Below are positions 1,605-56,170 of a stretch of DNA of 64,000 nt, in pieces; the stretch's first letter is position 1, and each line of letters starts with the position of its first letter. The notes under the pieces are model-generated. The model had not been told where the DNA came from. It saw only the letters and a program-made list of their open reading frames with translations, and searched no databases. A program made the position numbers and the translations under genes. The stretch is from Escherichia phage ECO340P2. The stretch is from the sequence record OP172792. One strand, 5' to 3'.

Positions 1605-2579
1605 ATGCAACTTGGTTTCCCAATTATTGATGTAGTTGTTTTAGTTGGTATTTTAGCATTGTCTATTGGTATCGATTTCTTTGGTCATAAAGAAAATAAA
1701 GAAATTGGAATCAAATCTGCTTTGCTTTGGTCTGTTTTTTGGATTGCTTTAGCTTTAGGGTATTACGCATTCATTTGGGTAGAACATGGTAAAGAATTTG
1801 CCGCGCTTTTCCTAAGTGGTTATGTGTTGGAAAAGAGTCTTTCTGTAGATAACCTAATGGTGTTCATGGCAATTTTTGCAAGCTTTGGAATTAAAAGCAC
1901 ACATCTCCAACATAAGATCTTACTTTGGGGGATTGCAGGAGCCATTGTCTTCCGAGGTATTTTTGTTGCAGCAGGCACCGCTTTGTTTAACCTTCATTGG
2001 TCGGTCCAAGTGTTGTTTGGTCTGATTGTAGCTTGGTCTGCCGTTGCTATTATCAAAGGGGGTGACGAAGAAGAGGATATTGATTACTCTAAACATTGGG
2101 CTGTTCGTTTAGTAGGTAAAGTTCTGCCTATGCACAATGCACTGGATGGTGAAAAGTTCATTACTATTAAGAATAGTATTAAATATGCAACCCCTGCTCT
2201 TCTTTGTGTGTTTGTTATTGAGCTTACAGATATTGTCTTCTCTTTTGATTCAGTTCCGGCTGTGATTGGTGTGACACAAGAACCTCTGCTAGTTTATTCT
2301 GCAATGCTGATGGCTGTTCTTGGCCTACGTGCACTTTTCTTTGTGTTAAGTGTAGCTGTGAAATATTTGGTTCACTTAGAGAAAGCTGTTGCTGTGGTTC
2401 TGGTGTTTGTTGGTGCTAAACTTATGTATCACCCGTTCGGTGAAACACTTCATGCCAAGTGGTCATTCCTCCCGCATGATATCTCTCCTAACGTAAGTTT
2501 AATGATTGTTCTAGGCACATTAGCTCTTGGTGTTATTGCAAGCTTTATCTTTCCTGAAAAAGAAGAAGCCACTGTTTAA
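1605..2579 (+). CDS. terC: TerC-family integral membrane protein
   Basis: Multi-pass hydrophobic protein carrying the TerC hallmark LEKSLSVDNLMVF; strong RBS GAGAGGAG upstream; followed by a terminator. Confidence 0.85.
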   Translation: MQLGFPIIDVVVLVGILALSIGIDFFGHKENKEIGIKSALLWSVFWIALALGYYAFIWVEHGKEFAALFLSGYVLEKSLSVDNLMVFMAIFASFGIKSTHLQHKILLWGIAGAIVFRGIFVAAGTALFNLHWSVQVLFGLIVAWSAVAIIKGGDEEEDIDYSKHWAVRLVGKVLPMHNALDGEKFITIKNSIKYATPALLCVFVIELTDIVFSFDSVPAVIGVTQEPLLVYSAMLMAVLGLRALFFVLSVAVKYLVHLEKAVAVVLVFVGAKLMYHPFGETLHAKWSFLPHDISPNVSLMIVLGTLALGVIASFIFPEKEEATV

Positions 2580-2585
2580 TAGATG

Positions 2586-2610
2586 AGCCTCCTTCGGGAG
2601 GCTATTTTAT
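2586..2610 (+). terminator. Rho-independent terminator after terC
   Basis: AGCCTCC-TTCG-GGAGGCT followed by ATTTTAT. Confidence 0.75.
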
Positions 2611-2621
2611 AGGAGAGACTT

Positions 2622-2972
2622 ATGAGTAATTTTGATGAAATTCAAGAACTTGTTTGGGATTTATGTGGTGATGTGGATTACGTTTCGGACTATCTTTCAA
2701 AAGTTTACCCTGGGGTAAGCGTTATGATTGTGACAAAAGATCCAATTAACTTACCTCCTAATGTGGTAGCTTGTTGTGGAAGTGGTTCAGGAGAAGTGGA
2801 GCCTGTATCTCGTTGGGAATTAACTAAAGCCGTTTCAAAACGAAACGGTGAAGTTTTGAATATTGATATCGAGCAAATATGGACTTCTCCAGCAGCCAAA
2901 TGGAATGATCCAAATGGTTGGGATTTGTTCTTTTGGGATAATGAAACTGATGATGAGGTATTTTTAAAATGA
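2622..2972 (+). CDS. Hypothetical protein
   Basis: ORF track; AGGAGAG RBS; no recognisable motif. Confidence 0.5.
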   Translation: MSNFDEIQELVWDLCGDVDYVSDYLSKVYPGVSVMIVTKDPINLPPNVVACCGSGSGEVEPVSRWELTKAVSKRNGEVLNIDIEQIWTSPAAKWNDPNGWDLFFWDNETDDEVFLK

Positions 2973-3214
2973 AATACTTGTTGGTTGTGTTTGAAAATAT
3001 TTGTTTTGCAATAGGTTTGTTTGTTGTAATTTTTGTATTGACAAGCGTAATCAACGGCAGTAAAGTGAGTTTATACCGAGATGGAGAGCAGCTTTATTGC
3101 TTCTCTGGAGATTTCAAACACAGATGTATTAATAGTCAAAACGAGGAAAGCAAATATGAAAAAACTAGCCCTGATTTTAATTGGTTGTATCTTTTTAACA
3201 GCTTGCGAGGATGA
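2969..3214 (+). CDS. Possible small single-TM protein (uncertain; overlaps next gene)
   Basis: ATGA start/stop overlap with preceding ORF; N-terminal hydrophobic helix LLVVFENICFAIGLFVVIFVL; overlaps the lipoprotein start by about 59 nt, so may be spurious. Confidence 0.25.
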   Translation: MKYLLVVFENICFAIGLFVVIFVLTSVINGSKVSLYRDGEQLYCFSGDFKHRCINSQNEESKYEKTSPDFNWLYLFNSLRG

Positions 3215-3593
3215 AACAAATCCTGCACAATACCAACAACCTCCTCAACAATACGCTCAACAAGGATCTGACGGAGATACAACTATTATCAACAATGGTG
3301 GCGGCTCTAGTAGTAGCGGTGTTGGGGAGTTTGCTACAGGTATGTTGTTAGGGCATATGATGAGCGGTGGTAGTAATCGTGGTGGCGGAGATTATAACGA
3401 TAACAGAACGATTATTAATAAACATTATAACACACCTAAACCAAAGACTAATTTTTATGGTAAACCTAAACAAGAGACAAAAACTTATGAAAAGCCGAGA
3501 CAAACTTTTAAAACAAATAGTAGCTATACAACTCGTAAATCTTACAGTAGCCCTTTAAGTAAAAAGAGTTCATCTCGTAGCAAGCGACGTTAA
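3156..3593 (+). CDS. Lipoprotein (signal peptide with lipobox LTAC), Q/G/S-rich, basic C-terminus
   Basis: MKKLALILIGCIFLTAC is a classic lipoprotein signal with lipobox Cys; GAGG RBS; start ATG 3156 preferred over track start 3081. Confidence 0.6.
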   Translation: MKKLALILIGCIFLTACEDETNPAQYQQPPQQYAQQGSDGDTTIINNGGGSSSSGVGEFATGMLLGHMMSGGSNRGGGDYNDNRTIINKHYNTPKPKTNFYGKPKQETKTYEKPRQTFKTNSSYTTRKSYSSPLSKKSSSRSKRR

Positions 3594-3607
3594 TAAGGAG
3601 AAAAACA

Positions 3608-4201
3608 ATGACAATTTCTATTCGTACTTCCATCGTAGGTGTTAAAAGGTTGCCTAATGCTTTGCAAATCACACGTGCTTTGAGGGATACGTTCTCTGCT
3701 GTGGATGAGCATAAAATGCTTGATAATCTCTCAAATTGGCCCTATTTTCATTATTTTAAAAATGAAGATGACGAGTTTATAGATGCTGTTTCTTATGGTT
3801 ATGATTTCGGTAAGGAGGTTTCTCCTGAAGAATTTGTAGCTACGGTATTCCCAAATGGTTTTCCTACTCGCAGCAAACGTAAAAAAGGACCAAAAAACAA
3901 GAAACGTGCTATTAATAAAGCTACCATTTTCTTTACTGATGGGACACAGTATACGATTAAAGATTTTGAAGAAGTATCTTATACAGCAGGTGGAAATCTT
4001 TCTTTCTACACCATCAAAAAACAAAACGCTACGTTCAGCCATGTTTCTAACATGATTGAAATGTTAGTAGAAGATATTGAAAGCGTGGCTGTGTTAGGTA
4101 TGCATAAAAGCTTTTTAATTACAAATATTTCAGATTTCAGTGCACGTTTATCTAGCCCTGATTTTGAAGCCACGACCACGCATTTCACTTTTAAGGTGTA
4201 A
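3608..4201 (+). CDS. Hypothetical protein
   Basis: ORF track; AAGGAG RBS; no recognisable motif. Confidence 0.5.
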   Translation: MTISIRTSIVGVKRLPNALQITRALRDTFSAVDEHKMLDNLSNWPYFHYFKNEDDEFIDAVSYGYDFGKEVSPEEFVATVFPNGFPTRSKRKKGPKNKKRAINKATIFFTDGTQYTIKDFEEVSYTAGGNLSFYTIKKQNATFSHVSNMIEMLVEDIESVAVLGMHKSFLITNISDFSARLSSPDFEATTTHFTFKV

Positions 4202-4204
4202 GTT

Positions 4205-4795
4205 ATGTATACCGAGAGAGACTTGCAACTCTTGTGGTGGGAAGTGATGCAGGAAATAAAAGAAGATTTTCCTGTTTACTACAACATGTTACGTGAAGCA
4301 GGATATAAAGCTTGCGTTAGAAACAAAGTGAATAACTCTTTTGGTTGGTGCAACTACCGAGATAAAATTGTTGTTGTAAATTGGCACTTGCATAAGAACT
4401 CTACAAGAGATATGATCGTGGATACAATGAAGCATGAAATTGCTCATGCTATTGATGGTTGTATGGGTAAGTTTAGTAGGCACGGTGCTCATTGGCAAAA
4501 ACTGGCAGCAGAATTAGGGGCTAATCCTAAAGCCACTTCCAAAGAGCCGTTGAACCACGAATATAAATATGTTCTTGTTCTGGTAGATAGGTTTGCGACA
4601 AGGTGTGTTAGAGGTTATAATCGTAAACCTAATCGCATGTACCCAGGTAAGCAACCTAATATGTGGTTGAAATCAGATAAAGAAGGGACCGAAGGAAAAT
4701 TATGGTTGTATAAATGGGACGATTGGGTTAAAGTAGCTAAAGAGTACGGTGTTTCACCATATATAAGAGATGCAGAAGAGGAGAATGAAGAATGA
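4205..4795 (+). CDS. HExxH zinc-metallopeptidase-like protein (SprT/Wss1-like)
   Basis: Motif MKHEIAHAIDGCMGKFSRHGAHW gives HExxH plus a downstream His; family assignment tentative. Confidence 0.5.
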   Translation: MYTERDLQLLWWEVMQEIKEDFPVYYNMLREAGYKACVRNKVNNSFGWCNYRDKIVVVNWHLHKNSTRDMIVDTMKHEIAHAIDGCMGKFSRHGAHWQKLAAELGANPKATSKEPLNHEYKYVLVLVDRFATRCVRGYNRKPNRMYPGKQPNMWLKSDKEGTEGKLWLYKWDDWVKVAKEYGVSPYIRDAEEENEE

Positions 4796-5904
4796 CAAGT
4801 CCATTTTTAAAAGCAGCTACTGGTGGTCAGAAGAAGTCTGAAATGAGTGTATTCGCTGCAACAACAGATGCAAGTAAATCTGTATTCGCGCCAAGCGTGT
4901 TAGATGCCAGTCCTGTTTATGCACCAGCCGCACCGCAAGAAGTCCCAGTTTTGCCTTCTATGACCCGACAAGAGATCGAAGAGATTGGGGCAGAGGCAGG
5001 AACAACCTTGCGTTCCTTGAATGCCGAGGTATTAAAACATCAACGTAGTAATCAAGGCGATCAGATGAGTGAACGACTCACAGCTTTGATTAAACAGGCA
5101 AAACAACTTGATCCAAACTCTATTAAACAAAGCAAGGGTATTACTAAACTCATTAAAAAGGTCATGGGTATGAAAGAAGACCTGTTCGGGGAGTTTGATA
5201 ATGTTAATAACCGTATTGAAGAGTTAGTAAAGAACCTTCAAATGGATATTCGCAAAGAAGAAGATTCCTTAGTATATCTTGAAAAACTACATCAAGCTAT
5301 TGGACAATATGCTGCAAGTTTGAACCGAGATATGCAGCTTCTAACAGCAACCTATGAAAAAGAAGAGCAAGCTTTGGCTGCTCTTCCAGAAGATGCAGTA
5401 GAACAGCGACAAGTGATCCGAGATACTTTGGATCTTCTGGAGATTCGTATTGCGGATTTAAAAGCATTGCGCCTACTGTGTGTCCAAATGGGACCACGTG
5501 TACAAGGTATGCAAAAAGTTTCTGCAAGCTTAATGCGATCTGCGCGTAACATAGTAAATAATGTTATCCCTGCTTACTCTGCTAACTTCTCAATGTATAT
5601 TGAGAGCTTACGTCAAATGAAAGCCGCAGAAACACAGAATAACGTTCTTGATGAATTTAACCTGGCAATTAAATTAGGTAGTGATTTGGCTACACAAAAT
5701 CAGATTGAAGCCGCAGCATTGGCTAACCGTCAAGTGTTAGATATTGATACTCTGCGACACGATCAGGAAAACTTAGTTAAAATGCTGGAAGAAACAAATC
5801 GCATCAATACAGAAGCCCGTGCTGCTCGTGTTGATTATATTAATGAAGTTCAATCTCTGGAAGACGGGATGGTAGCTGCTGTAAAACGAGGACTTGGTAA
5901 ATGA
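4792..5904 (+). CDS. TelA-like (toxic anion resistance family) coiled-coil protein, tentative
   Basis: About 370 aa, disordered N-terminus then long coiled-coil-prone helices; size, composition and position between terC and terD fit TelA/KlaA. No diagnostic motif verified. Confidence 0.4.
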   Translation: MTSPFLKAATGGQKKSEMSVFAATTDASKSVFAPSVLDASPVYAPAAPQEVPVLPSMTRQEIEEIGAEAGTTLRSLNAEVLKHQRSNQGDQMSERLTALIKQAKQLDPNSIKQSKGITKLIKKVMGMKEDLFGEFDNVNNRIEELVKNLQMDIRKEEDSLVYLEKLHQAIGQYAASLNRDMQLLTATYEKEEQALAALPEDAVEQRQVIRDTLDLLEIRIADLKALRLLCVQMGPRVQGMQKVSASLMRSARNIVNNVIPAYSANFSMYIESLRQMKAAETQNNVLDEFNLAIKLGSDLATQNQIEAAALANRQVLDIDTLRHDQENLVKMLEETNRINTEARAARVDYINEVQSLEDGMVAAVKRGLGK

Positions 5905-7485: not shown

Positions 7486-8280
7486 ATGTCCGAGAAAATC
7501 AGCCTGAAAAAACGTCAAGAAAACCTTGCTTTCTCTCTGAAAAAGAATAAGAACCTGAATGAAGGTAAGATTGTTCTTCGTGTAGCATGTGCTCTAGATA
7601 TTTCTGGTAGTATGCATGGTCTATATGCTCGTGGAGTAGTGAGTGATTTTGTAGGTAAACTGCTCCCTTTTGGTATGCTGTTCGACGATAATGAACAAAT
7701 TGATATGTGGGCCTTCAATACAAGTTCTCAAGAGCTTACTCCAGCAACAGCAGACGTTTACGATGATTATGTTGGTAAATGTATGCGTAATGTTCGTATC
7801 GGAGGTGGAACAAATTACGCCCCTGTAATGGCAGATATCTACGATGAGTATTTTGGCACTGTTACCAAATATATTACCACTAAACAAGTGGTACAAGAGG
7901 AGGCTCCAAAGAAAGGCTTCTTTAATCGTCTGCTTGGTAAAACTGAAACAGTATCTGTAGAGCGTGAAAAGGTTGTAGCTGTATCTGAACCAGGTGCTGA
8001 CGTTACCCCTGGTGTTGTATTCTTCCAGACGGATGGTGAGAATGGTGATCCTAGTGCTGTTCGTCGTCTTATTGAAGAGAATAAGAATAAACCTATTTAT
8101 TGGTTCATGGTTGGCGTCGGTAATGAGAAGTTTGGCTTCCTGAAAGAACTGGCAAATGCTTATGATAATGTTGGTTTTATTGGCATTAAAGATTTAGACT
8201 TGACAGATTCAGAGCTTTATGACAAACTCTTATCTGAAGAGTTCGGAGAGTGGGTTGTTAAAGTAGGTGCTAAAAAATGA
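7486..8280 (+). CDS. vWA (MIDAS) protein with TerD-like N-terminal head; TerF/TerY-like
   Basis: N-terminus MSEKISLKK...FSLKK mimics the TerD start; LRVACALDISGSM is a vWA MIDAS DxSxS motif. Confidence 0.65.
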   Translation: MSEKISLKKRQENLAFSLKKNKNLNEGKIVLRVACALDISGSMHGLYARGVVSDFVGKLLPFGMLFDDNEQIDMWAFNTSSQELTPATADVYDDYVGKCMRNVRIGGGTNYAPVMADIYDEYFGTVTKYITTKQVVQEEAPKKGFFNRLLGKTETVSVEREKVVAVSEPGADVTPGVVFFQTDGENGDPSAVRRLIEENKNKPIYWFMVGVGNEKFGFLKELANAYDNVGFIGIKDLDLTDSELYDKLLSEEFGEWVVKVGAKK

Positions 8281-8525
8281 TCGACGAGCTTGCCTCTCAA
8301 GTCGTAGAAAATTATTGGCGCGAGAGAGAAGCTTTCATTATGCGCAGTCTCAAAGAATATTTCATTGGGACTGTGCGGATGGAAGATATTGTAAGTAGAG
8401 TAGAGATTCATGTATGGCCTGATTATGAAGAATGGGTTGACAAAGAAAATGAAAATGCTATAATTCTTCGTATATACAAACCGGAGATAACATTAGGAGG
8501 AAGAAGTGTTAAACTTCGAAATTGA
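8277..8525 (+). CDS. Hypothetical protein
   Basis: ORF track; ATGA overlap with upstream gene. Confidence 0.4.
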   Translation: MIDELASQVVENYWREREAFIMRSLKEYFIGTVRMEDIVSRVEIHVWPDYEEWVDKENENAIILRIYKPEITLGGRSVKLRN

Positions 8526-8775
8526 TGAGCAAAAAATAAATAAACGATGCCTTACCATTAAAGATTTGGATGTAGGAGATACTTTCGTCTATGAAAATGC
8601 ATTTGACGAAAATGGTTTAGACCTTAGTGAAGTCATTGTTTATTTAAAAGTAGATGATGGGGAAAATGATTATTCTGCTGTAGAATTAAACCATCATGCA
8701 CAATTAGTAGCAATCCAAAACACATCTAAGCTTTTGGAAGTAGAATTGACTGTAACTGGTATTACACTTAAATAA
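8506..8775 (+). CDS. Small protein, paralog B of the duplicated pair (partner of terD)
   Basis: GTG 8506 preceded by AGGAGG; shares DLDVGDTF..Y and L.VELTVTGITLK motifs with ORF 7212..7484. Confidence 0.5.
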   Translation: MLNFEIDEQKINKRCLTIKDLDVGDTFVYENAFDENGLDLSEVIVYLKVDDGENDYSAVELNHHAQLVAIQNTSKLLEVELTVTGITLK

Positions 8776-8790
8776 TAGAGGAGACAAAAG

Positions 8791-9393
8791 ATGACTGATA
8801 AAATTTCCCTGAAAAAAGGCTCTAGCGAAAAAATTTCCCTGAAGAAAGTTGCTCCGGCTCTGAAAGAACTGCGCCTGGAATTCTCTTGGAAATCTGATTC
8901 TAAACTGGATCTGGATGTAAGTGCACTGGTTTGTCGTCATAATGCCGCTGGCAATCCTGAAATGCTGTCTGCACGTCATCTGGTTTGCTATGCTAACAAG
9001 TTTGATCCTGAACGTTCTACCTTTGCTGGTGACGATGTTCGTGATGGGACTGGCAGCATGGAGCAGATTGATATTACTCTGGCTAAAATCTCTCCCGATG
9101 CACAAGAGATTGCCTTTGTTCTGACCATTGATGATGATACAGGTCTGAAACGTTTTGGTCATGCTTCTGAAGGTATGCTTAAAATCTTCGACTCCGAGTG
9201 TAATGTGGAAATTCTGGATTTTGACTTCCTGGCTCCTGAAGTAGCTGGCAACACAATCTGCCACGTGGCTTCCTTGGTTCGTGAAGATGGTGAATGGAAG
9301 CTGAAAGCATATGGTGTAGGTAAAGCTGGTCTGGATATTTGTGATGTGGTGATGGCCTTCGGTGGTAAAAAAGAATGGTATGAATGTCCATAA
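8791..9393 (+). CDS. terD: TerD-family protein
   Basis: Collinear with remembered enterobacterial TerD: ISLKKGSSEKISLKK, LDLDVSALVC, GDDVRDGTGS..IDITL, FVLTIDD and GEWKLKAYGVGKAG all match. Confidence 0.9.
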   Translation: MTDKISLKKGSSEKISLKKVAPALKELRLEFSWKSDSKLDLDVSALVCRHNAAGNPEMLSARHLVCYANKFDPERSTFAGDDVRDGTGSMEQIDITLAKISPDAQEIAFVLTIDDDTGLKRFGHASEGMLKIFDSECNVEILDFDFLAPEVAGNTICHVASLVREDGEWKLKAYGVGKAGLDICDVVMAFGGKKEWYECP

Positions 9394-9412
9394 TAATTAA
9401 CAAATGATTTTG

Positions 9413-9434
9413 AGGGGGGAGAAATCCCCCTCTT
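9413..9434 (+). terminator. GC-rich hairpin after terD (possible terminator, short U-tract)
   Basis: GAGGGGG-AGAAAT-CCCCCTC followed by TT only. Confidence 0.4.
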
Positions 9435-9461
9435 GCAATAAAGCCTCTATCGTGTTATACT
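9433..9461 (+). promoter_or_regulatory. Sigma70-type promoter (TTGCAA-N17-TATACT) upstream of the cell-wall hydrolase gene
   Basis: -35 TTGCAA 9433-9438, 17-nt spacer, -10 TATACT 9456-9461. Confidence 0.55.
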
Positions 9462-9493
9462 AGAAGTTCGTTAACTTAAAAAGGAGGCAAAAT

Positions 9494-10015
9494 TTGCTGA
9501 TAAAAAACTTTGTAACAGTTGCGTTACTATCCTTAACTGCTTTTACATTTACACCTGTTGTGGCGAAAGCCGAAGCTGCAAACGTAAAAACCGCTAAAGT
9601 AGTTCACAAATGTACAAAGCAATATAATGATAAAATTCTATTAGCTTGTGCAATTTACGCAGAAGGTCGCGGTCTGGGTAAAAAAGGAATGAATGCCGTT
9701 GGGAATGTGGTAATCAATAGAAGAAATGATGCCTACTTTCCTAACACAGTCAGAGGAGTCTTGTTCCAGAAAGGACAATTTTCATATGCGAAAACTTTTA
9801 ACGTAACAGAGAAAGATAAGTGGCAGGAAGCAAAAGCAATAGCGGAGCGTTTACTTTATTTAGAGAAACATTTTCCTGAATTGCGATCTGTTTTAGATGT
9901 TACTAAAGGTGCTCTATACTTCAAGAAACGGAATATAAGGACACACTGGGAACGCGATATGCGTCTTGTTTATCGAGATAAAGTGCATGGTTTCTATCTA
10001 CCAAAGGAGAGTTAA
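9494..10015 (+). CDS. Secreted cell-wall hydrolase (SleB/CwlJ-type) with N-terminal signal peptide
   Basis: TTG start after AAAGGAGG; signal-like N-terminus; core CAIYAEGRGLGKKGMNAVGNVVINRRNDAYFPNTVRGVLFQKGQFS matches the SleB-type fold; own promoter upstream. Confidence 0.75.
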   Translation: MLIKNFVTVALLSLTAFTFTPVVAKAEAANVKTAKVVHKCTKQYNDKILLACAIYAEGRGLGKKGMNAVGNVVINRRNDAYFPNTVRGVLFQKGQFSYAKTFNVTEKDKWQEAKAIAERLLYLEKHFPELRSVLDVTKGALYFKKRNIRTHWERDMRLVYRDKVHGFYLPKES

Positions 10016-10016
10016 A

Positions 10017-10301
10017 ATGCAAGAAGATAATACTGTTGTTGTAGCAAGTTACCTGGTTGTCGGTCTTACCGAAGAGGATGTATACTACACCCGTAAACAT
10101 TTGGAAGCATACGCTACTTTGTTTATGGAAGATGAAAAGGATGTAGATAAATATAGCATTGATATGATCAACGACAGTATTTATCCTTGTATGGTTCTTA
10201 AAGTAGATGCTGTGTTGTGGGAGCGTTTTGCAAGGACTCATGATGCTGTAGAATGCTCCGCAGTAATGTCTCAAAACAACATTTTAGGGGAGATTCACTG
10301 A
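10017..10301 (+). CDS. Hypothetical protein
   Basis: ATG 10017 after AAGGAGAG; in frame with track ORF 9966..10301. Confidence 0.45.
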   Translation: MQEDNTVVVASYLVVGLTEEDVYYTRKHLEAYATLFMEDEKDVDKYSIDMINDSIYPCMVLKVDAVLWERFARTHDAVECSAVMSQNNILGEIH

Positions 10302-10531
10302 TGGGAGAAGTCATTGAAGTCAATTTTCGCACTAAACAAAAAGTGCAAAAGTATGTCGTTATTAAAAACATTTGCGTTGTCTGCTTCAATACAGTAATAT
10401 ACGACTCACGACGCGGAGAAAACGAAAATGAACCTTACATTGAAATTTCTAAGAACAAAGGTCAATGTATTTGTAAGAACTGTGCAGTAGCTATTAAGGA
10501 GGTTGTAAATGAAAACGCTTGGGACCAATGA
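10301..10531 (+). CDS. Small zinc-ribbon-like protein
   Basis: TGATG overlap; two CxxC pairs (CVVC, CKNC). Confidence 0.45.
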   Translation: MGEVIEVNFRTKQKVQKYVVIKNICVVCFNTVIYDSRRGENENEPYIEISKNKGQCICKNCAVAIKEVVNENAWDQ

Positions 10532-10700
10532 AACTGGCGAGATCTCTCTTCAAGAAGTGACAAACGACAAACTGATTAAACTACGAGATGTAGCTCGTGA
10601 CCATCTTCAAGAATCTTTTAAAGAATATATGGAAGCACGAGATCGTGTAATCCAGATCCAACAGGAAATGATTAAACGTGGGATTGTAGCCGACAGTTAA
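10509..10700 (+). CDS. Small hypothetical protein
   Basis: ORF track; AAGGAGG RBS. Confidence 0.35.
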   Translation: MKTLGTNETGEISLQEVTNDKLIKLRDVARDHLQESFKEYMEARDRVIQIQQEMIKRGIVADS

Positions 10701-10718
10701 TATAACGGAGGGGGGAGA

Positions 10719-11282
10719 ATGATTTATTATATTACTCCCTATCTGACAGGAAATATCGGCAAGGCTATTAATGAAGCCATTGCCGTTCTTCCAGATGATA
10801 GTTGGGTGTGTTTAAGAGATACTGATACAATGTTCCTTCTGCCTGATCAACCATCTATGTTGGAAGATCTTGTTATGTCAAACCCACCTTTTGATGTAAT
10901 AGGTGCAACTTGTAATAGACTAGGTAGTGGTTATCAGCTTTTCTCTAACCAAATTAATGATGACCCAGACATTCTAAACCATATAGAATATGCTAAAATT
11001 GCACGGGAATATCATAAAACAAACGTTGAAGAAGTTCCTTTTGGAACACCTTTAGCTGGTTTCTTTTTGCTTTTTAGAAAATCATTGTGGAATGAGATTC
11101 CTTTCGAAGAAAAATCTATCCAATTTGACTTAATTTTCTCTCGCACTTTACATGAAAAAGGAAAGAGGTTAGGATTGATGCGGGGAATGTATCTGTTCCA
11201 CATTTATAGGTTAGGTCAAACAAATCCTCAACGGTCTATAAACCATTTATTACACTGTCACGATCACAGTAAAACTATTTAG
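10719..11282 (+). CDS. Possible GT-A-type glycosyltransferase (tentative)
   Basis: GGAGGGGGGAG RBS; CLRDTDTMFL resembles a DxD-type nucleotide-sugar site; weak. Confidence 0.35.
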   Translation: MIYYITPYLTGNIGKAINEAIAVLPDDSWVCLRDTDTMFLLPDQPSMLEDLVMSNPPFDVIGATCNRLGSGYQLFSNQINDDPDILNHIEYAKIAREYHKTNVEEVPFGTPLAGFFLLFRKSLWNEIPFEEKSIQFDLIFSRTLHEKGKRLGLMRGMYLFHIYRLGQTNPQRSINHLLHCHDHSKTI

Positions 11283-11290
11283 GAGAGAAA

Positions 11291-11974
11291 ATGGAAAATA
11301 TTAAAATCGGAGTAGGTGTTATCACTGTAGGTGTCCGTCCACTTAAAGATTACCTTGTAACAGATCCACGTGCAGATTTTCGAGTATTCAACGATCCAGA
11401 TCGTAAAGGTGTAGCTTATGCCAGGAATGAACTTATGCACCAGTTCTATGAAGAAGGTTATGATTATTGGTTTATTTTTGACGATGATTGTTACCCAGTT
11501 ATGGAGGGATGGGAAACATATTTTGTAGACCAAGCTATTTCTGGAAGATGGGATTTCTTTGGTATGCCGGAGTATTTCAAAGATAAAGTTGTCGGAAGCA
11601 AAGGAGAAGTTATTCTCTGGGAACTTGCAATGTGTCAATTTGCAATGTATTCTCGTGCCGTTGTTGAGAAGATGGGTTATTTCCGCCCTTACACTCACGG
11701 TTATGGTTTTGAAGATGCCGAATGGGGACACCGTTTGAAAGCTGCTGGTTTGAATCATGGTATTCAGGCAACACCTTGTCCACTTCGCATTATGGCTTAT
11801 ATTCACCCAGACGATGTTTTTGGAAACAATCCTATGCCTTTTGCTAATCTGACTAAAGAAGAGAAAGAAGCCGCTATTGGGATTAACTGGGAAGAATATA
11901 AAGCGTCTTTAGAGGATATTAAAAATGGGAAAATCCGACTTTCCTATGAGGAGGCAATGGCACATGTCAAATAA
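11291..11974 (+). CDS. Glycosyltransferase, GT-A fold (DxD motif)
   Basis: Motif YWFIFDDDCYP in a GT2-like context; followed by two GT-B paralogs. Confidence 0.5.
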   Translation: MENIKIGVGVITVGVRPLKDYLVTDPRADFRVFNDPDRKGVAYARNELMHQFYEEGYDYWFIFDDDCYPVMEGWETYFVDQAISGRWDFFGMPEYFKDKVVGSKGEVILWELAMCQFAMYSRAVVEKMGYFRPYTHGYGFEDAEWGHRLKAAGLNHGIQATPCPLRIMAYIHPDDVFGNNPMPFANLTKEEKEAAIGINWEEYKASLEDIKNGKIRLSYEEAMAHVK

Positions 11975-12911
11975 AAAATGGTCTAAACTAAAAATTGATG
12001 CAAAACCTCACAGCGGTTGTGATTATCATCGTATTGTTATGCCATTTGACAACAATAATTTTCAACCTAAAAAAGATATTGTTGTGTTTAACCGTATTCA
12101 CTCTAAAGGAGCAGAATACGTTCTGTCTTTGAAACGTCAAGGTGTTAAGATTGTTGTAGATTTAGATGATTTCTACCAACTTAATCCAGAACACTATTTA
12201 GCAAGTTTATATGAGTCAAACACCCATGCTATTGTAGCTATGGTTAAGCTTGCAGATGTGGTTATTGTGACTACGGAATACTTGGCATATAAAATCCGAC
12301 ATTTAAATAGAAATGTTGTTGTGATCCGAAATGCACTTCCTTTTGATAGTGGACAGTTCACTTTGTCAAATGATCGTTCGTCCGGTACCCCTGTTGTATG
12401 GGCTGGCGGCGCTAGTCATGAACCTGATTTACGACTGGTTTCTAATACTTTTGATGATGAACTTCTTACTATTGCAGGATATGAAGCTTCACAGAGCATC
12501 ACAGGGCAAGAATGGATTAAGATCCGTAGAAATTTACCAAATGCTAAATATAAAGCTGCCGTAAAAGATTTAGATAATTACATGAGTGTTTATGAGAGTC
12601 ATGCTATTGCTATAGCTCCTTTGGTAGATAATGATTTTAATAATTGTAAAAGTAATCTCAAAATCCTGGAAGCTGGAGCAAAAGGTATTCCGATTGTTTG
12701 TTCTAAGGTGTTACCTTATTTTAACCCTGTAGATGCTCGCGCTGTTGCTTATGCAGAGAATAAAGCAGAGTGGCATTACGAAATTGTTAAGCTTCTTCGC
12801 AATCCAAACTATCGGGAAGATCGTGGTTTGTTCTTGGCGGAACATGTTCGAACACATTATAATCTGGCAGATGCAAACGAGTTGCGACGCCAGGTTATTG
12901 AAAGTTTGTAG
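11964..12911 (+). CDS. Glycosyltransferase, GT-B fold (GT1/GT4-like), paralog 1
   Basis: C-terminal NCKSNLKILEAGAKGIPIV resembles the GT4 EAxxxGxP sugar-donor motif; start ATG 11964 after GAGGAGG (track start 11925 lacks RBS). Confidence 0.5.
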   Translation: MSNKKWSKLKIDAKPHSGCDYHRIVMPFDNNNFQPKKDIVVFNRIHSKGAEYVLSLKRQGVKIVVDLDDFYQLNPEHYLASLYESNTHAIVAMVKLADVVIVTTEYLAYKIRHLNRNVVVIRNALPFDSGQFTLSNDRSSGTPVVWAGGASHEPDLRLVSNTFDDELLTIAGYEASQSITGQEWIKIRRNLPNAKYKAAVKDLDNYMSVYESHAIAIAPLVDNDFNNCKSNLKILEAGAKGIPIVCSKVLPYFNPVDARAVAYAENKAEWHYEIVKLLRNPNYREDRGLFLAEHVRTHYNLADANELRRQVIESL

Positions 12912-12918
12912 GTGAAGT

Positions 12919-13863
12919 ATGGGACAAATAATTCTTGACAATCGTAACGGAATCAATTATAGTGTCTGCGATTTCCATAGGGTAGTGCTGCCTTACTCAA
13001 GGCAGTTCTCTTCACAACCTAAACACAACGTTTTCGTTTTTAACGGAGTGCCAACAAAAGGTAAAGAGGGCTTTTTAGCCCTTAAAAACCTAGGCTTTAA
13101 AATGGTTATGGATTTGGATGACTCTTTAGTTATTCCAAAAGGACACATGTTAGAAGGTATTTTTGAATCAGGTATTCGTGAACATTTAAAATGGTTTTTA
13201 GAGCACAGTGACCTTGTTACAACTACGACACCTGCCTTGCAAGTTGAACTTTCACAATACAATGATAATGTGCACATAATCCCTAATGGACTTCCTTACG
13301 ATGAAGGTCAATTTGTGTTGACCCGTGATCGCTACTCCAAATCTCCTTTGGTCTGGGCTGGAAGTGAAACACATAAACAAGATTTGGCTATCTTGCCTGA
13401 TTTTGGTAAAGATCTTACAATATGTGGTTTTCGTAGGGATTCTGAAGTTTTAAGTAGTCGTGAATGGTCTGTAATCAGAGAAAATGTAGCACCAACTTGT
13501 GTTTATGAAGGTGTAAGACCATATTCCAACTACATGGAATCTTACGATGGTCATCAAATCAGTCTTGCACCATTAATCGATAACGTGTTTAATAATGCAA
13601 AAAGCAATCTTAAAATTCTTGAGGCAGGTGCTAAAGGTTTACCTTTAATCTGTTCTCCTCGTGAGAACTATCATACACAAGAGTTTAAAGATTTGTTATT
13701 CTTTGCTGAAACACCTTCCGAGTGGAAAGATATTACGGAATACTTATTAAGTGCTCCCGATGTTTGCATGGAGAAAGGATTAGCATTAGCTAAGTATGTC
13801 AGGACTCATTATCACATTGATGTGTTGAATGAGCGTCGTAGACTTTTATTTGAGGAGCTATAA
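12919..13863 (+). CDS. Glycosyltransferase, GT-B fold, paralog 2
   Basis: Collinear with 11964..12911 (APLIDNVFNNAKSNLKILEAGAKGLPLI versus APLVDNDFNNCKSNLKILEAGAKGIPIV). Confidence 0.5.
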   Translation: MGQIILDNRNGINYSVCDFHRVVLPYSRQFSSQPKHNVFVFNGVPTKGKEGFLALKNLGFKMVMDLDDSLVIPKGHMLEGIFESGIREHLKWFLEHSDLVTTTTPALQVELSQYNDNVHIIPNGLPYDEGQFVLTRDRYSKSPLVWAGSETHKQDLAILPDFGKDLTICGFRRDSEVLSSREWSVIRENVAPTCVYEGVRPYSNYMESYDGHQISLAPLIDNVFNNAKSNLKILEAGAKGLPLICSPRENYHTQEFKDLLFFAETPSEWKDITEYLLSAPDVCMEKGLALAKYVRTHYHIDVLNERRRLLFEEL

Positions 13864-14141
13864 TGATTAACACTTTTGATTTTGAATACACCACTCGTAA
13901 TGGGAAAACTTTAGTCGTGGAGGTGGATTACTATTATGAAGAACCTAATCCACTTTCTCGTGAAAGCGATTGGGACTACCACGGAGGGCTTTTAATTGAC
14001 GGTATTCGTTTTTATGAAGGATCTACAGAAGTTTTTGAAAAAGATTTAAATGTAACTGTGGCAGAAATTGCTTTTCAATTTAGAAAGCACATGGAAGAAC
14101 TAGAAGCAGAATATATGATGGAGACTAACGAACCATTTTAA
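13863..14141 (+). CDS. Hypothetical protein
   Basis: ORF track; ATGA overlap with upstream gene. Confidence 0.45.
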   Translation: MINTFDFEYTTRNGKTLVVEVDYYYEEPNPLSRESDWDYHGGLLIDGIRFYEGSTEVFEKDLNVTVAEIAFQFRKHMEELEAEYMMETNEPF

Positions 14142-14153
14142 CAGGAGAACAAA

Positions 14154-15932
14154 GTGTCGCACATTATAACTAAATATGGATTTGATGTTGATCTTAGCAA
14201 GGAAGGACATACAGGTTGTCCGCGCTGCATGAAAAATGGCAAGGATCGCTCTCGTAATAACCTGATGGTTTATGGATTAGATTCTAATGGAGAGCATAAA
14301 GGTGCTAAGTGCTTTGCGTGTGAATACACTATTCCTAGCGTAGAATGGTTACGAGAAAATGGTGAAGTTTTAGAAGAAGAGGAGGAGATTGTGGGTTCGG
14401 AATTTAATAAACAGATTCATCGTAAAATTGTTCAAGAAACATCAACCAACCCACGTGGTTATCGAGGCATTAAAGAAAAAGTTTCATCTTTCTATGGTGT
14501 TCGTTATGAATACCGTCAGGAAGGGGATCAGATGGTAGTAGAAAGCTGTTTATATCCAACTACTATCGGTAAAGAATTGGTTGGTTTCAAGCGTCGTATT
14601 CATCCTAAAGACTTCAGTAAGCCTATTGGTCAAGTAGGTAAAGATGTAGATCTTTTTGGACAAATTCGTTTTGCAGACCGTTCTCATACTGTTGTAATTA
14701 CAGGTGGTGAACACGATGCTCTGGCAGCTTATCAAATGCTGTCTGAAAACTTGGATAGTAAATATGAGCTTCCAGCAGTAGTAAGTGGCACAACTGGTGA
14801 AACCAGTATGTATAAACAAGTTCAGGCACAATATCCTTTCTTTGAAAAATTTAAGAAAATTATTGTTTGCATGGATAATGACAAAGCAGGTAATGAAGCA
14901 TTTGAAAATATTGTTAAGGTGCTGCCTCGTAACAAAGTATACCGTATGCAGATGGACCTTAAAGATGCCAATCAGTATCTGGAAGAAGGTCGTGCAAAAG
15001 ATTTCGTAAAAGCTTTTTGGAGTGCTCGTCTGTACACACCAGCAGGTGTTTATGCTTCCAACGTCTTGTATGAAGCTGCATTAGAATGCTTGGAATCCAA
15101 GATGATTACCTTGCCTCCTTTTATGCGTGTTGCTGCAAATATGCTGGGTGGTGGTTTAGTAGAAGAAGAGATTACAGTTATCCTGGCAAAGACTAGTATC
15201 GGTAAAACTTTGATGGTGAATGAGATCACCAAACATATTATCGTTGCGCACCCAGAACATACCCTAGGTATTCTGTCCTTGGAAGCAACTTATAAGAAAT
15301 ATTCTCGTAACCTGTTGTCCTCTTTCCTACACATTCCTCTACACAGGAAAACACCTGAAGAGAAATTTCAAATCTTGGAAGAGAATAAAGAAAAAATCCT
15401 AGATTTTTACGAAAGAGAAGATGGATCACCACGTTTTTATGTGTGTGATGATCGTGGAGCAGATGTGGAGTCTATCAAAGAAAAAGTTTTGGAGATGATC
15501 ATCTATTTTGGAGTAACAATTCTTGTTATCGACCCTTATTCTGATTTGCTTTCTGGTATGGATGTTCAAGCCCAGGAAGAGTTAGCAACATGGTTGAAGC
15601 GTATCATGAAAGAATATGCTATAACTATTATCGTCATCTCACACGTTAAGAAATCAGCTAATGGTGGCAATGAACACTTAACAGAAGACGATGCAATGGG
15701 TAGTAGTTTCTTGGCTAAAGGTGCTGGTATTACATTGGCTTTGGAACGAGATAAAGCTGCTGAAGACCCTGTAGAACGCAATACAACTCATTGCTTTATC
15801 CTAAAAAACCGTGAGTTCTCGGAAACTGGTCCGGCAGGGCAGTTTTACTATGACATTAGAACTGCAACTCTGCACGACAAAGAGCAGTATTTCAACAATC
15901 CTGCTAATTTGCCTACGGATAGCAACTACTAA
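14154..15932 (+). CDS. Bifunctional DNA primase-helicase (T7 gp4-like)
   Basis: GTG start after CAGGAG; N-terminal zinc ribbon (CPRC...CFAC), TOPRIM-like IVCMDNDKAGNEAF, DnaB-type Walker A AKTSIGKT and Walker B VLVIDPYSD. Confidence 0.8.
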   Translation: MSHIITKYGFDVDLSKEGHTGCPRCMKNGKDRSRNNLMVYGLDSNGEHKGAKCFACEYTIPSVEWLRENGEVLEEEEEIVGSEFNKQIHRKIVQETSTNPRGYRGIKEKVSSFYGVRYEYRQEGDQMVVESCLYPTTIGKELVGFKRRIHPKDFSKPIGQVGKDVDLFGQIRFADRSHTVVITGGEHDALAAYQMLSENLDSKYELPAVVSGTTGETSMYKQVQAQYPFFEKFKKIIVCMDNDKAGNEAFENIVKVLPRNKVYRMQMDLKDANQYLEEGRAKDFVKAFWSARLYTPAGVYASNVLYEAALECLESKMITLPPFMRVAANMLGGGLVEEEITVILAKTSIGKTLMVNEITKHIIVAHPEHTLGILSLEATYKKYSRNLLSSFLHIPLHRKTPEEKFQILEENKEKILDFYEREDGSPRFYVCDDRGADVESIKEKVLEMIIYFGVTILVIDPYSDLLSGMDVQAQEELATWLKRIMKEYAITIIVISHVKKSANGGNEHLTEDDAMGSSFLAKGAGITLALERDKAAEDPVERNTTHCFILKNREFSETGPAGQFYYDIRTATLHDKEQYFNNPANLPTDSNY

Positions 15933-15950
15933 GGGCTTCGGCCCTTTTAT
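15932..15950 (+). terminator. Rho-independent terminator after primase-helicase
   Basis: AGGGC-TTCG-GCCCT followed by TTTAT. Confidence 0.7.
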
Positions 15951-15961
15951 TAAAATACCTG

Positions 15962-15990
15962 TTGACAACTGTGCGGAAGGGATTTATACT
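15962..15990 (+). promoter_or_regulatory. Strong sigma70-type promoter (TTGACA-N17-TATACT)
   Basis: -35 TTGACA 15962-15967, 17-nt spacer, -10 TATACT 15985-15990; just after the primase-helicase terminator. Confidence 0.65.
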
Positions 15991-16023
15991 TGTCTCATCA
16001 ACCAAACAAGAGGAGAAGTAAAA

Positions 16024-16455
16024 ATGCGTATGACAATCGATCTGAATGCAAAAGTTAAAGCTGCTGGTGCTCTGGGTGCTGGTGTTATTAAACATAAACA
16101 AGCGTTGGCGTTTGCCATCCCACATATGATTGTTGAGGATCATCCTGAAGAGTTTGCTGTAAAAGTTGTTGAGAACAATGTCTCTGTTATTGAACATATC
16201 CCAACTGGACGTTCTTACCGTGTTGTTTCTTCTAAAGGTTTCCGTTTCGATGTAAGCCCTTCTTTCACAAAAGGGGCTGGTCGTAGTAAAGTAGGTATTC
16301 TTTCTTACAAATATTACATCAATAAAGTTGCAGATGGTGTTGCATTCTGTCGTGTAAGTGAGGGTAAAGTAGATATCATCTTTAAAAATACCAAAAACAT
16401 GGTTATTTCTGATGATGGTAAAGTTGACCTCACTATTGAGTTCGCTAACAACTAA
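16024..16455 (+). CDS. Hypothetical protein (first gene after a strong promoter)
   Basis: ATG 16024 after AGAGGAGAAG; the upstream part of the track ORF overlaps the primase gene. Confidence 0.5.
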   Translation: MRMTIDLNAKVKAAGALGAGVIKHKQALAFAIPHMIVEDHPEEFAVKVVENNVSVIEHIPTGRSYRVVSSKGFRFDVSPSFTKGAGRSKVGILSYKYYINKVADGVAFCRVSEGKVDIIFKNTKNMVISDDGKVDLTIEFANN

Positions 16456-35205: not shown

Positions 35206-35468
35206 TAGTCATCCTCTTTAGTAGATTGTGATCTGCCCCAACGTAAATCAATAAGATTTTTCATGAGGCGAGAAGGGGTTATCATGAAAACAAAAGCCCA
35301 ACCCATCCATTCAGGAATTTCTTTTTCTATTCCTAAAAAGATAAACATGCCTGTCATAACAGACATGCCTACAGCGTTCCAGACTTTCGTAGAGCTTACC
35401 CCGTTGCCGGGGTAAGTGCAGAACATTCCGCGAATAAATTTTTTAAAACCGTTTTTCTCTTTAGCCAT
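35205..35468 (-). CDS. Small membrane protein
   Basis: ORF track; two hydrophobic segments. Confidence 0.4.
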   Translation of the reverse strand: MAKEKNGFKKFIRGMFCTYPGNGVSSTKVWNAVGMSVMTGMFIFLGIEKEIPEWMGWAFVFMITPSRLMKNLIDLRWGRSQSTKEDD

Positions 35469-56151: not shown

Positions 56152-56170
56152 TTAATTTAATCTCCTAAGA

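Follow-up and report, generated by a model that had tools for sequence, protein, structure and literature searches.

Small cell-wall-cutting enzymes of the SleB type are already known as genes in phAPEC8-like phages, where the closest described example is phAPEC8 gp067 (YP_007348567.1, 'putative cell wall hydrolase SleB'). More distant relatives, which likewise combine a single Hydrolase_2 domain with an N-terminal signal peptide, occur in Vequintavirinae (Pectobacterium phage CB7_83, Escherichia phage naam gp76) and in T5-like phages (BF23 sleB). Their genes lie far from the spanins in genomes that also encode a canonical endolysin, a pattern described for both Vequintavirinae (PMC7344957, PMC11370258) and T5-like phages (PMC11180984). 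In Vequintavirus the SleB-like gene stands directly upstream of rIIA and rIIB, while the small membrane protein encoded after it in Certrevirus and Henunavirus (such as pEa55_256) has been proposed as a class II holin (PMC7344957). A signal peptide has been reported for the CB7 homologue (PMC7344957) and for nine of the 11 'cell wall hydrolase' lysins of Erwinia phages (PMC13480210). PMC10698182 reports no signal peptides, and other homology statements in that paper look unreliable. Chaseviridae of the Erwinia phage Calisson/Y2 type encode a leader-bearing PHROG 938 protein with the same domain immediately downstream of a holin, where the tail-fibre genes end, and the corresponding SKA49 protein has been called a SAR endolysin acting with a pinholin (PMC10282059). 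Finally, PAK_P3 gp151 and PAK_P4 gp154 of Pakpunavirus ('cell wall hydrolase domain protein') carry Hydrolase_2 behind an N-terminal hydrophobic segment and are encoded among DNA-metabolism genes. The Pseudomonas lysin LysPA26 was considered as a characterised Hydrolase_2 enzyme and set aside, as its paper shows an unrelated lysozyme-like protein from a PA11-like podovirus.

Sec-dependent and SAR endolysins, such as Lys44 of Oenococcus phage fOg44, Lyz of P1 and R of phage 21, offer a second point of comparison, since they reach the wall compartment by export, with no canonical holin. Their catalytic folds are unrelated to that of the SleB-like protein, and each is the sole endolysin of its phage, whereas here a T4-type lysozyme coexists. 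SAR domains are uncleaved tethers rich in Gly and Ala, unlike the present leader, which looks cleavable. By analogy, the likeness raises the same problem of how an exported lysin might be restrained until lysis.

The SleB-like gene of ECO340P2 and its expression signals

The stretch analysed here, referred to as the window, comprises 64,000 nucleotides of Escherichia phage ECO340P2 (record OP172792). It is a segment of a Phapecoctavirus genome, about 97% identical to phAPEC8, and shares 97-98% DNA identity with 64 Phapecoctavirus records, in which the gene under study is labelled endolysin or cell wall hydrolase SleB. The open reading frame (Table 1) is a real gene, already annotated in phAPEC8-like coliphages. 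Its product shows 98% protein identity to gp067 over 173 aa, and promoter, Shine-Dalgarno sequence, TTG start and neighbours are alike in gp067 and the other Phapecoctavirus and Justusliebigvirus orthologs; without substantive difference from gp067, it is the same gene in another isolate. As in phAPEC8, a TerD-like gene lies upstream, and three genes for small, soluble products and then glycosyltransferase genes lie downstream. The locus belongs to the replication and metabolism arm, where its surroundings include genes for TerD, glycosyltransferases and primase.

The promoter of its own that a preliminary description had assigned to the gene is well supported. The -35 element, the TG extension, a TAnAnT -10 element and the spacing are all kept in three lineages that have otherwise diverged in their intergenic DNA. 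Abutting the -35 element is a GC-rich hairpin, a probable terminator or insulator judging from its structure, whose stem persists in Justusliebigvirus and in a Klebsiella phage of the Stephanstirmvirinae although the sequences differ. A terminator scan did not call this hairpin because it lacks a T-run. The Shine-Dalgarno sequence and TTG start are invariant in three Stephanstirmvirinae lineages, and a TTG or GTG start is kept in each of the five lineages of Stephanstirmvirinae and Vequintavirinae that were compared. Such a start was weighed as an indication that translation is throttled. Among 66 annotated phAPEC8 genes, though, 14 have a non-ATG start, six of them TTG, so the codon is not unusual in such a phage and is weak evidence for a low dose.

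Placing the gene in the 'early' region, as had been done, agrees with the neighbouring replication and metabolism genes, which are its sole basis. Promoter class was rejected as a clock: sigma70-like promoters, often TG-extended and preceded by a hairpin, are found on either arm and precede, among others, the portal gene and the spanin operon, so promoter type cannot separate early from late. A literature search found no transcriptome or proteome timing for Phapecoctavirus or Vequintavirinae. The sole relative with expression data is PAK_P3 gp151, a homologue only about 35% identical, which is not a late gene: its transcripts have a similar relative level at 3.5 min and 13 min (log2FC 0.62, adjusted p 0.34), unlike those of structural genes. 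By analogy, the SleB-like gene is probably not strictly late.

Table 1. Features of the SleB-like locus and of the spanin genes in the ECO340P2 window
Feature	Position	Strand	Description or basis
GC-rich hairpin	9412-9432	+	Stem 7 bp GAGGGGG/CCCCCTC, loop 7 nt; read from sequence, 3' of upstream TerD-like gene
Sigma70-type promoter	9433-9461	+	-35 TTGCAA 9433-9438, spacer 17 nt, TG-extended -10 TATACT 9456-9461; 9/12 matches, TG present
Shine-Dalgarno	9483-9487	+	GGAGG, 6 nt ahead of TTG start codon; sequence reading
Secreted (predicted) Hydrolase_2 (SleB/CwlJ-type) peptidoglycan hydrolase gene	9494-10015	+	173 aa, TTG start, phAPEC8 gp067 ortholog
Predicted signal peptide, residues 1 to 26-28	9494-9577	+	n-region MLIK, h-region FVTVALLSLTAFTF, c-region TPVVAKAEA; hydropathy, motifs
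Cys40 and Cys52 codons	9611-9613, 9647-9649	+	N-terminal edge of catalytic domain; the two Cys co-occur
Catalytic domain, residues 44-168	9623-9997	+	Alignment, conservation, fold match
Predicted catalytic Glu57 codon	9662-9664	+	Aligned to Glu of SleB YGESRGE in 4F55, 4FET
o-spanin, outer-membrane lipoprotein	61614-61958	-	114 aa, lipobox LMMTGC; PHROG 1267 'Rz-like spanin' E = 8e-21
i-spanin, Rz-like	61849-62241	-	130 aa, TM residues 7-25; PHROG 4297 'Rz-like spanin' E = 1e-34

Catalytic domain and N-terminal leader

The assignment to the SleB-type hydrolases is borne out by domain, fold and active-site residues. Pfam Hydrolase_2 (PF07486) matches residues 62-168 with E = 1.8e-17 and 64.3 bits, against a gathering cut-off of 27 bits, over profile positions 3-100 of 100, and the protein also matches PHROG 938 'endolysin' (E = 1e-18). 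Hydrolase_2 is the only domain that Pfam gives, with no N-terminal peptidoglycan-binding domain. The SleB equivalog TIGR02869 reaches 52.4 bits versus a cut-off of 236.5, with only profile positions 79-159 of 201 matched. In the AF2 model, residues 32-173 have pLDDT > 90 and residues 1-31 are disordered. The significant PDB matches are 4F55 and 4FET only, with TM(target) 0.71-0.74, probability 1.00 and about 27% identity.

Ahead of the catalytic domain lie the leader (residues 1-28) and a short conserved segment (residues 29-43). Besides Glu57, the predicted groove includes Arg76 and His165, and E57, N75, R76, F96 and H165 are invariant in 36 sequences and nearly so in 145 representatives. The 19-residue spacing from Glu to Arg is that of SleB, whose groove residues in B. 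subtilis are E203, R222, Y278 and H301 (PMC13556211). The catalytic fold and the groove Glu, Arg and His are thus common to the phage protein and to Bacillus SleB (4F55, 4FET) and CwlJ, whereas the N-terminal peptidoglycan-binding domain and spore context of Bacillus SleB have no counterpart in the phage protein. Conversely, the Cys pair and the apparently cleavable leader of Gram-negative type are specific to the phage/proteobacterial subfamily. Both Cys residues are present in 25 of the 145 representatives, Cys52 alone in 10 and Cys40 alone in none; this co-occurrence, on which the putative disulfide was judged rather than on model coordinates, fits an oxidising compartment. The pair is also kept, within an HxC...LAC motif, in Vequintavirinae. 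The mature protein has a computed pI of about 9.9 and a net charge of about +15.

A signal peptide had been proposed as well, and a rule-based reading agrees: a positive n-region (M1-K4), a hydrophobic h-region (F6-F19) and a c-region with Ala-X-Ala sites and small residues at -1/-3 form a tripartite leader, where a canonical endolysin would have no export signal. Candidate signal-peptidase I sites follow A24, A26 or A28. The h-region is half Thr, Ser or Ala (7/14) and contains no Gly, with plausible cleavage sites after it. Small residues at -1/-3 are kept in most of 18 homologues, although the c-region is otherwise variable. The h-region is unusually conserved, with 86% pairwise identity versus 71% in the mature part. 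N-terminal hydrophobic leaders are found in 137 of 150 distant family representatives, and the T5-like (BF23), rV5-like (naam), Henunavirus, Busanvirus and Chaseviridae homologues carry leaders too. These sequence features support the view that the SleB-like protein resembles a Sec-exported enzyme, not a holin-dependent cytoplasmic endolysin.

The relatives differ from the ECO340P2 protein in several respects. Vequintavirinae and T5-like homologues share 33-37% identity with it and have other neighbours (rIIA/rIIB, joined in some genera by a small membrane protein); their partner endolysin is a peptidase, whereas that of phAPEC8-like phages is a T4-type lysozyme. The Chaseviridae homologue is weakly similar (36% identity over residues 45-143) and follows a holin, while the present gene is isolated. 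Pakpunavirus homologues are about 35% identical in the catalytic domain only, and their N-terminus, with an acidic n-region, resembles an uncleaved membrane anchor.

Other lysis genes and the possible role of the SleB-like enzyme

As noted earlier, the spanin genes are remote from the SleB-like gene. They lie 51.6 kb away on the minus strand and encode a two-component pair, with the o-spanin gene overlapping the 3' part of the i-spanin gene by 110 nt, and the SleB-like gene is therefore not part of a lysis cassette with them. The stated lack of a nearby holin also holds: within about 5 kb there is no small membrane-protein gene, and TM-positive open reading frames in that interval are embedded in longer genes. 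Further afield, a 2-TMD protein (1059-1280), an 87-aa membrane protein (35205-35468) and a 71-aa open reading frame upstream of the i-spanin were tried as holin candidates and rejected, having no lysis-related Pfam or PHROG match.

The claim that this is the only murein hydrolase is correct for the window and wrong for the genome type. Within the window, tblastn for a T4-type lysozyme yielded chance matches only, nine tail and baseplate proteins gave no Pfam match to a murein-hydrolase domain, and the matching stretches of phAPEC8 have no other annotated murein hydrolase. Elsewhere in its genome, phAPEC8 encodes gp172, a T4 e-type lysozyme that lacks a leader and shares about 47% identity with the e lysozymes of T4-like phages. 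In the closest relative identified, dw-ec, conservation of this enzyme is 98.8%. The premise was a window artefact, because in relatives the lysozyme gene lies about 24 kb past the right end. Search counts of Stephanstirmvirinae records with the T4-type lysozyme (132) and with the SleB-like gene (131) suggest that every record carries both, and the pair has been published as the 'two lytic proteins' of a Phapecoctavirus (PMC10793346). RefSeq labels the SleB-like protein 'endolysin', and several genome papers then overlook the T4-type lysozyme or equate both enzymes. The preliminary description would have been overturned by a separate endolysin/holin cassette, and part of that exists: by the phAPEC8 annotation, a separate canonical endolysin is present but a canonical cassette is not, with no holin annotated beside the lysozyme or anywhere in phAPEC8. 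Its proposal of Sec-dependent endolysin export is upheld as far as the export features go; given the T4 e-type lysozyme, the protein is no longer the endolysin by default.

The SleB-like enzyme is not the phage's only lysis enzyme and is probably not the principal one. The best explanation, held tentatively and with somewhat less than even confidence from the sequence features, is an accessory, Sec-exported, holin-independent periplasmic murein hydrolase. Host RNA polymerase would transcribe the gene from its conserved sigma70-type promoter, and the 173-aa precursor would be exported by Sec and lose its leader of about 26-28 residues to signal peptidase I. The mature periplasmic protein, about 17 kDa and very basic, would probably be stabilised by a Cys40-Cys52 disulfide and would cut sacculus glycan strands with a SleB-type, lytic-transglycosylase-like active site (Glu57, Arg76, His165). 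It would most likely reach the wall before, and independently of, holin triggering and at a tolerated dose, leaving a weakened or nicked sacculus that may allow quicker or more complete envelope breakdown at lysis. Its presumed partners in this genome type would be the cytoplasmic, holin-requiring T4 e-type lysozyme and the two-component spanin. That the Hydrolase_2 family can work in lysis is indicated, by analogy, by the leader-bearing PHROG 938 member directly after the holin in Erwinia phage Calisson. Both phAPEC8-like enzymes would nevertheless be glycan-strand cleavers and so not complementary in bond type, which weakens a pure lysis-helper argument.

The shared bond class also bears on a role other than lysis, since conservation of two such enzymes would suggest a different time or place of action rather than different chemistry. 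The protein might then remodel the periplasmic wall early or continuously, through muropeptide release or recycling, sacculus loosening or a changed envelope that guards against superinfecting phages. Loosening of this kind could serve cell enlargement or trans-envelope complexes. Such a role, doubtful but credible, would agree with a gene that has its own promoter and lies in the replication and metabolism arm, with its place directly ahead of rIIA/rIIB in Vequintavirus and with the non-late transcription of PAK_P3 gp151, which its authors proposed as an auxiliary gene for wall degradation in infection that would explain the accumulation of cell-wall precursors. Family members in holin cassettes elsewhere argue against it. 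In T5-like phages, moreover, the SleB-like gene lies amid predicted early promoters and the holin-adjacent endolysin is a separate M15 peptidase. The e lysozyme gene of T4 is also outside the late structural clusters. Both positions imply that location outside the late module says little about function. A broader version, in which the SleB-like hydrolases of phAPEC8-, rV5- and T5-like phages and of Pakpunavirus are non-lytic, early or continuous wall-remodelling factors and the h-region is a regulated membrane tether rather than a simple export signal, seems rather improbable.

Such a tether has also to be weighed in connection with the 'endolysin' label of RefSeq and PHROGs, which taken literally would make the protein the principal endolysin, Sec-exported or SAR-like, held in the periplasm or at the membrane and released by a putative (pin)holin, with the T4-type lysozyme secondary or otherwise used. 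The strong conservation of the h-region would fit a functional tether, but the leader has Ala-X-Ala sites and not the Gly/Ala-rich composition of the SAR type. Likewise, the Chaseviridae arrangement, with the SAR endolysin and pinholin reported for SKA49 (PMC10282059), and the putative class II holin of Certrevirus and Henunavirus (PMC7344957) favour it, whereas ECO340P2 has no adjoining membrane-protein gene, the three downstream products being small and soluble. The SleB-like gene is conserved across lineages in which the canonical endolysin varies in type (T4 lysozyme, M15 peptidase, T5-type peptidase, PVP-SE1 gp146); here, however, a complete leaderless T4 e-type lysozyme is strictly co-conserved, and the timing of PAK_P3 gp151 is non-late. 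A principal endolysin is accordingly considered unlikely.

The wall of E. coli, a non-sporulating Gram-negative host, is not known to contain muramic-delta-lactam. SleB and CwlJ proper depend on that structure (PMC13556211), so activity on E. coli murein is an assumption, and the protein could instead be inactive on the host wall, as a wall-binding protein, a decayed one or a virion-associated lysin for entry. This is very improbable, as the catalytic Glu, like the groove Arg and His, varies little or not at all over 145 diverged representatives, a Sec leader is hard to square with loading into virions that assemble in the cytoplasm, the virion proteome of PA5oct did not include the homologue, and expression of the CB7 homologue (33-36% identical) in E. 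coli is reported to be toxic (PMC7344957, data not shown).

As an observation, the finding is mostly ordinary and contains nothing new: it concerns a known gene of modest interest for annotation, lysin mining and phage biology. The natural product, which is what counts for lysin mining, is probably the mature protein without its leader and with a disulfide. A secreted Hydrolase_2 protein accompanies a canonical endolysin in many large virulent phages that infect Gram-negative bacteria. Action of the preferred accessory hydrolase before lysis, if it occurs, would make this a case in which a phage changes the host wall during infection and not only at its end.

Genomic setting and identity of the hydrolase

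Megablast searches with positions 8500-11500 and 56000-64000 matched about 130 phage records, 64 of which reached at least 95% identity, all of them Phapecoctavirus (phAPEC8-like, Stephanstirmvirinae); the top matches were Shigella phage SF1-1 (97.7%) and Escherichia phage dw-ec (99.7%). On the phAPEC8 genome (NC_020079.1) the window runs in reverse-complement orientation, from about 123.5 kb down to about 59.5 kb. Its + arm (to about 23 kb) holds replication and metabolism genes encoding Ter proteins, glycosyltransferases, primase/helicase and DNA polymerase, and its - arm (about 23 to 63 kb) holds tail, head, terminase and spanin genes with a tRNA cluster. A tellurite-resistance-type gene set sits just 5' of the hydrolase gene, and four glycosyltransferase genes follow the hydrolase region in a row (10719-14000, +). 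One of these (11291-11974) resembles TET-associated glycosyltransferase (PF20691) weakly and below threshold (E = 0.0012), which could hint at DNA hypermodification rather than envelope sugars. The phAPEC8 portal gene (14942-16393 in the numbering of the phAPEC8 stretch compared) is annotated with a CTG start and is shorter than the portal ORF of the window; this annotated start is probably wrong.

Coordinates of the hydrolase gene, its neighbours and the features compared with it (window positions unless an accession is given)
Feature	Position	Strand	Details
TerC/Alx-family membrane protein	1605-2579	+	9 TM segments; TIGR03718, E = 1e-94
phAPEC8 gp057 equivalent	~4790-5900		annotated 'tellurite resistance' in phAPEC8
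Perfect consensus promoter	8437-8464	+	TTGACA, 16 nt, TATAAT with TG
TerD-domain protein	8791-9393	+	PF02342, E = 9e-28
GC hairpin, 7 bp	9412-9432	+	directly 5' of hydrolase promoter
Hydrolase promoter	9433-9461	+	TTGCAA, 17 nt, TATACT with TG extension (promoter scan)
Hydrolase ORF	9494-10015	+	173 aa; TTG start 6 nt 3' of GGAGG
Leader segment, conserved h-region and hypervariable c-region	9509-9577	+	codons 6-28 of hydrolase gene
Sigma70-like site before gene 57289-57768	57805-57833	-	
Portal ORF	57862-59427	-	GTG start, 521 aa
Sigma70-like site before portal gene	59497-59525	-	
o-spanin	61614-61958	-	lipobox LMMTGC and PHROG match
i-spanin	61849-62241	-	topology and PHROG match
Promoter-like site, spanin operon	62484-62513	-	TTGCAA, 18 nt, TAAGAT with TG
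Stand-alone T4 e-type lysozyme of Stephanstirmvirinae, further record	NC_052663.1 22340-22837		166 aa

The preliminary description of a SleB-type hydrolase gene holds: the gene is real, and its product matches Pfam Hydrolase_2 far over the gathering threshold (E = 1.8e-17) and has a predicted SleB-type fold. PHROGs assigns it to family 938 ('endolysin'); for its phAPEC8 ortholog, gp067, RefSeq uses the name 'endolysin' and GenBank 'putative cell wall hydrolase SleB'. The only PDB sequence matches (phmmer) are the SleB catalytic domains 4F55 and 4FET, which align E57 with the Glu of the YGESRGE motif. An AlphaFold2 model from 36 sequences has pLDDT >90 at residues 32-173, with residues 1-31 disordered, and in Foldseek against the PDB it retrieves only the same two domains (TM 0.71-0.74 on target). 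All 36 aligned sequences share E57, N75, R76, F96 and H165, and 145 wider-family representatives show little or no variation at E57, R76, Q95 and H165. The catalytic groove of Bacillus subtilis SleB comprises E203, R222, Y278 and H301 (2026 paper, PMC13556211). Because the active-site residues are conserved and the Glu-to-Arg spacing is 19 residues in both proteins, the hydrolase looks catalytically competent. Judged by sequence, it is nevertheless a Hydrolase_2 family member rather than a true SleB, scoring 52 bits against a cut-off of 236.5 bits for the SleB equivalog model and missing the N-terminal wall-binding domain. To our knowledge, muramic-delta-lactam is absent from the hydrolase's host; SleB and CwlJ require it (PMC13556211).

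Promoter and predicted export leader

The gene had also been credited with its own TATACT promoter, and a sigma70-type site is conserved upstream of it across lineages. Upstream regions were aligned from the window, phAPEC8, a Justusliebigvirus and a Klebsiella Stephanstirmvirinae phage (proteins 71-75% identical). The -35, the Shine-Dalgarno sequence and the TTG start are invariant, TG and a TAnAnT -10 are retained at equal spacing, and the hairpin is retained by differing sequences. Because these elements are kept throughout, the gene has a conserved promoter of host type to itself. That alone gives no reason to call it early: sigma70-type promoters of equal quality, in many cases preceded by a hairpin, also stand before the portal gene, the gene at 57289-57768 and the small first gene of the spanin operon. 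The spanin-operon site lies behind a terminator-like hairpin, 5' of a 71-aa ORF and the spanin pair, and shares the layout of the hydrolase promoter (hairpin and CTTGCAAT -35). The label 'early' comes solely from the replication and metabolism genes nearby, not from promoter class. The perfect consensus promoter of the region falls within the 3' end of ORF 8277-8525, just 5' of ORF 8506-8775.

The N-terminus reads MLIK / FVTVALLSLTAFTF / TPVVAKAEA / ANVK, comprising a positive n-region, a 14-residue h-region and a c-region with Pro, and contains three candidate cleavage sites with small residues at -1 and -3. A rule-based reading therefore agrees with the signal peptide proposed earlier. The leader is kept in 18/18 close homologues, leaders also occur on T5-like (BF23), rV5-like (naam), Henunavirus, Busanvirus and Chaseviridae homologues, and an N-terminal hydrophobic segment is present in 137 of 150 wider-family cluster representatives. 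Signal peptides have been described on the CB7 homologue (PMC7344957) and, among 11 Erwinia phage lysins of the 'cell wall hydrolase' kind, on 9 (PMC13480210). A report of none in near-identical phages (PMC10698182) is given little weight because its authors also put the identity of these proteins with lambda and T4 structures at 99% or more.

Cys40 and Cys52 are invariant within the close family; among the 145 wider-family representatives, 25 carry both, 10 carry Cys52 alone and none carries Cys40 alone, the pattern a periplasmic disulfide would give. The predicted mature enzyme is about 17 kDa, with pI ~9.9 and net charge ~+15. In exported proteins the core of the signal peptide usually diverges more quickly than the mature part. 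Mean pairwise identity in the close family is 86% in the h-region, 71% in the mature enzyme and 46% in the c-region, the most variable part. A simple export signal would not usually show such h-region conservation, which could reflect an mRNA constraint or a role that the hydrophobic segment has in its own right.

A T4-type lysozyme, the spanins and the search for a holin

The hydrolase had been described as the only recognisable murein hydrolase in the window. This is true of the window, where tblastn finds no gp172-like sequence, but not of the genome type: phAPEC8 gp172 (NC_020079.1 36208-36708) is a stand-alone, leaderless T4 e-type lysozyme of 166 aa that shares about 47% identity with e lysozymes from T4-like phages. 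Its counterpart in dw-ec, the closest relative found, is 98.8% identical and lies at 31513-32010, about 24 kb past the window's right end. The central surprise of the preliminary description thus came from the window boundary. Lysozymes of this type occur in 64 records at at least 95% identity and 68 at 60-90%, and the SleB-like protein in 64 at at least 95% and 67 at 60-80%. Because these counts, compared as totals, are similar, every Stephanstirmvirinae genome probably has both genes. According to a genome announcement, one Phapecoctavirus 'encodes two lytic proteins', which carry a PF00959 and a PF07486 domain (PMC10793346). Annotation of the lysozyme is inconsistent (some RefSeq records have 'baseplate hub subunit and tail lysozyme', dw-ec has 'hypothetical protein'), which probably explains why some papers count just one lytic enzyme in these phages.

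Of the separate canonical endolysin/holin cassette that was to count against the preliminary description, the endolysin therefore exists but not the cassette: the short gene just 5' of gp172 was rejected as a holin, its 49-aa product being hydrophilic. No holin is annotated anywhere in phAPEC8, and, as first remarked, none is obvious near the hydrolase gene, with no credible membrane-protein gene within about 5 kb. The spanin pair noted some 52 kb away on the late strand is confirmed at 51.6 kb. Immediately 5' of the TerC-like gene, a 73-aa protein (1059-1280, +) has two strong transmembrane segments and class II holin-like topology; it has no significant Pfam match, and its sole match is PHROG 16065, of unknown function.

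Relatives and proposed role of the enzyme

Relatives of the hydrolase were found in 1,219 phage records (tblastn). In T5-like phages the SleB-domain gene lies far from the holin, which an M15 peptidase gene adjoins (PMC11180984); in BF23 it is among the genes with predicted early promoters. All Vequintavirinae genera carry a SleB-like protein with a signal peptide, coexisting with a peptidase or other endolysin (PMC7344957, PMC11370258), and the CB7 member was reported as toxic in E. coli (PMC7344957). In the Vequintavirus naam (2495-4974 of its stretch) the gene lies directly 5' of the rIIA/rIIB pair. In Henunavirus and Certrevirus the gene for a small membrane protein, a proposed class II holin (PMC7344957), intervenes; in Erwinia phage pEa_SNUABM_55 (Henunavirus, 2998-5745 of its stretch) this protein has 76 aa and is multi-TM. 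This locus is a possible lysis-control neighbourhood, one missing from the phAPEC8-like arrangement. In Pakpunavirus PAK_P3, the transcript of the family member gp151 is at about equal relative level at 3.5 and 13 min (log2FC 0.62, adjusted p 0.34; 'no significant change'), while structural genes rise 2^5 to 2^13, and its authors suggested gp151 as an auxiliary gene behind cell-wall precursor accumulation.

The hydrolase is conserved together with a cytoplasmic T4-type lysozyme and a spanin pair, and in the phAPEC8-like lineage hydrolase and lysozyme alike would attack the glycan strand. For these reasons the secreted hydrolase is best seen as an accessory enzyme, differing from the lysozyme in time or place of action and not in chemistry. 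It should work like an exported lysin, reaching murein without a holin. We tentatively favour weakening of the sacculus before lysis, independently of a holin, with a benefit at lysis; what we infer from the sequence here is export and cleavage, the disulfide, the bond specificity, the timing and this benefit.

A purpose unrelated to lysis is a less likely alternative. That the hydrolase is the main endolysin, released by a putative pinholin, is unlikely: the lysozyme accompanies it, although some family members are plausibly real endolysins, because in Chaseviridae (Erwinia phage Calisson) a leader-bearing PHROG 938 member lies immediately 3' of a holin. An inactive enzyme, or one used at entry, is highly improbable.

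The preliminary observation is correct; the gene is known and annotated, and earlier work has already described it alongside a T4-type lysozyme. Though not new, and beyond computation, the question why so many virulent phages with large genomes retain both a secreted Hydrolase_2 enzyme and a canonical endolysin is a genuine one.
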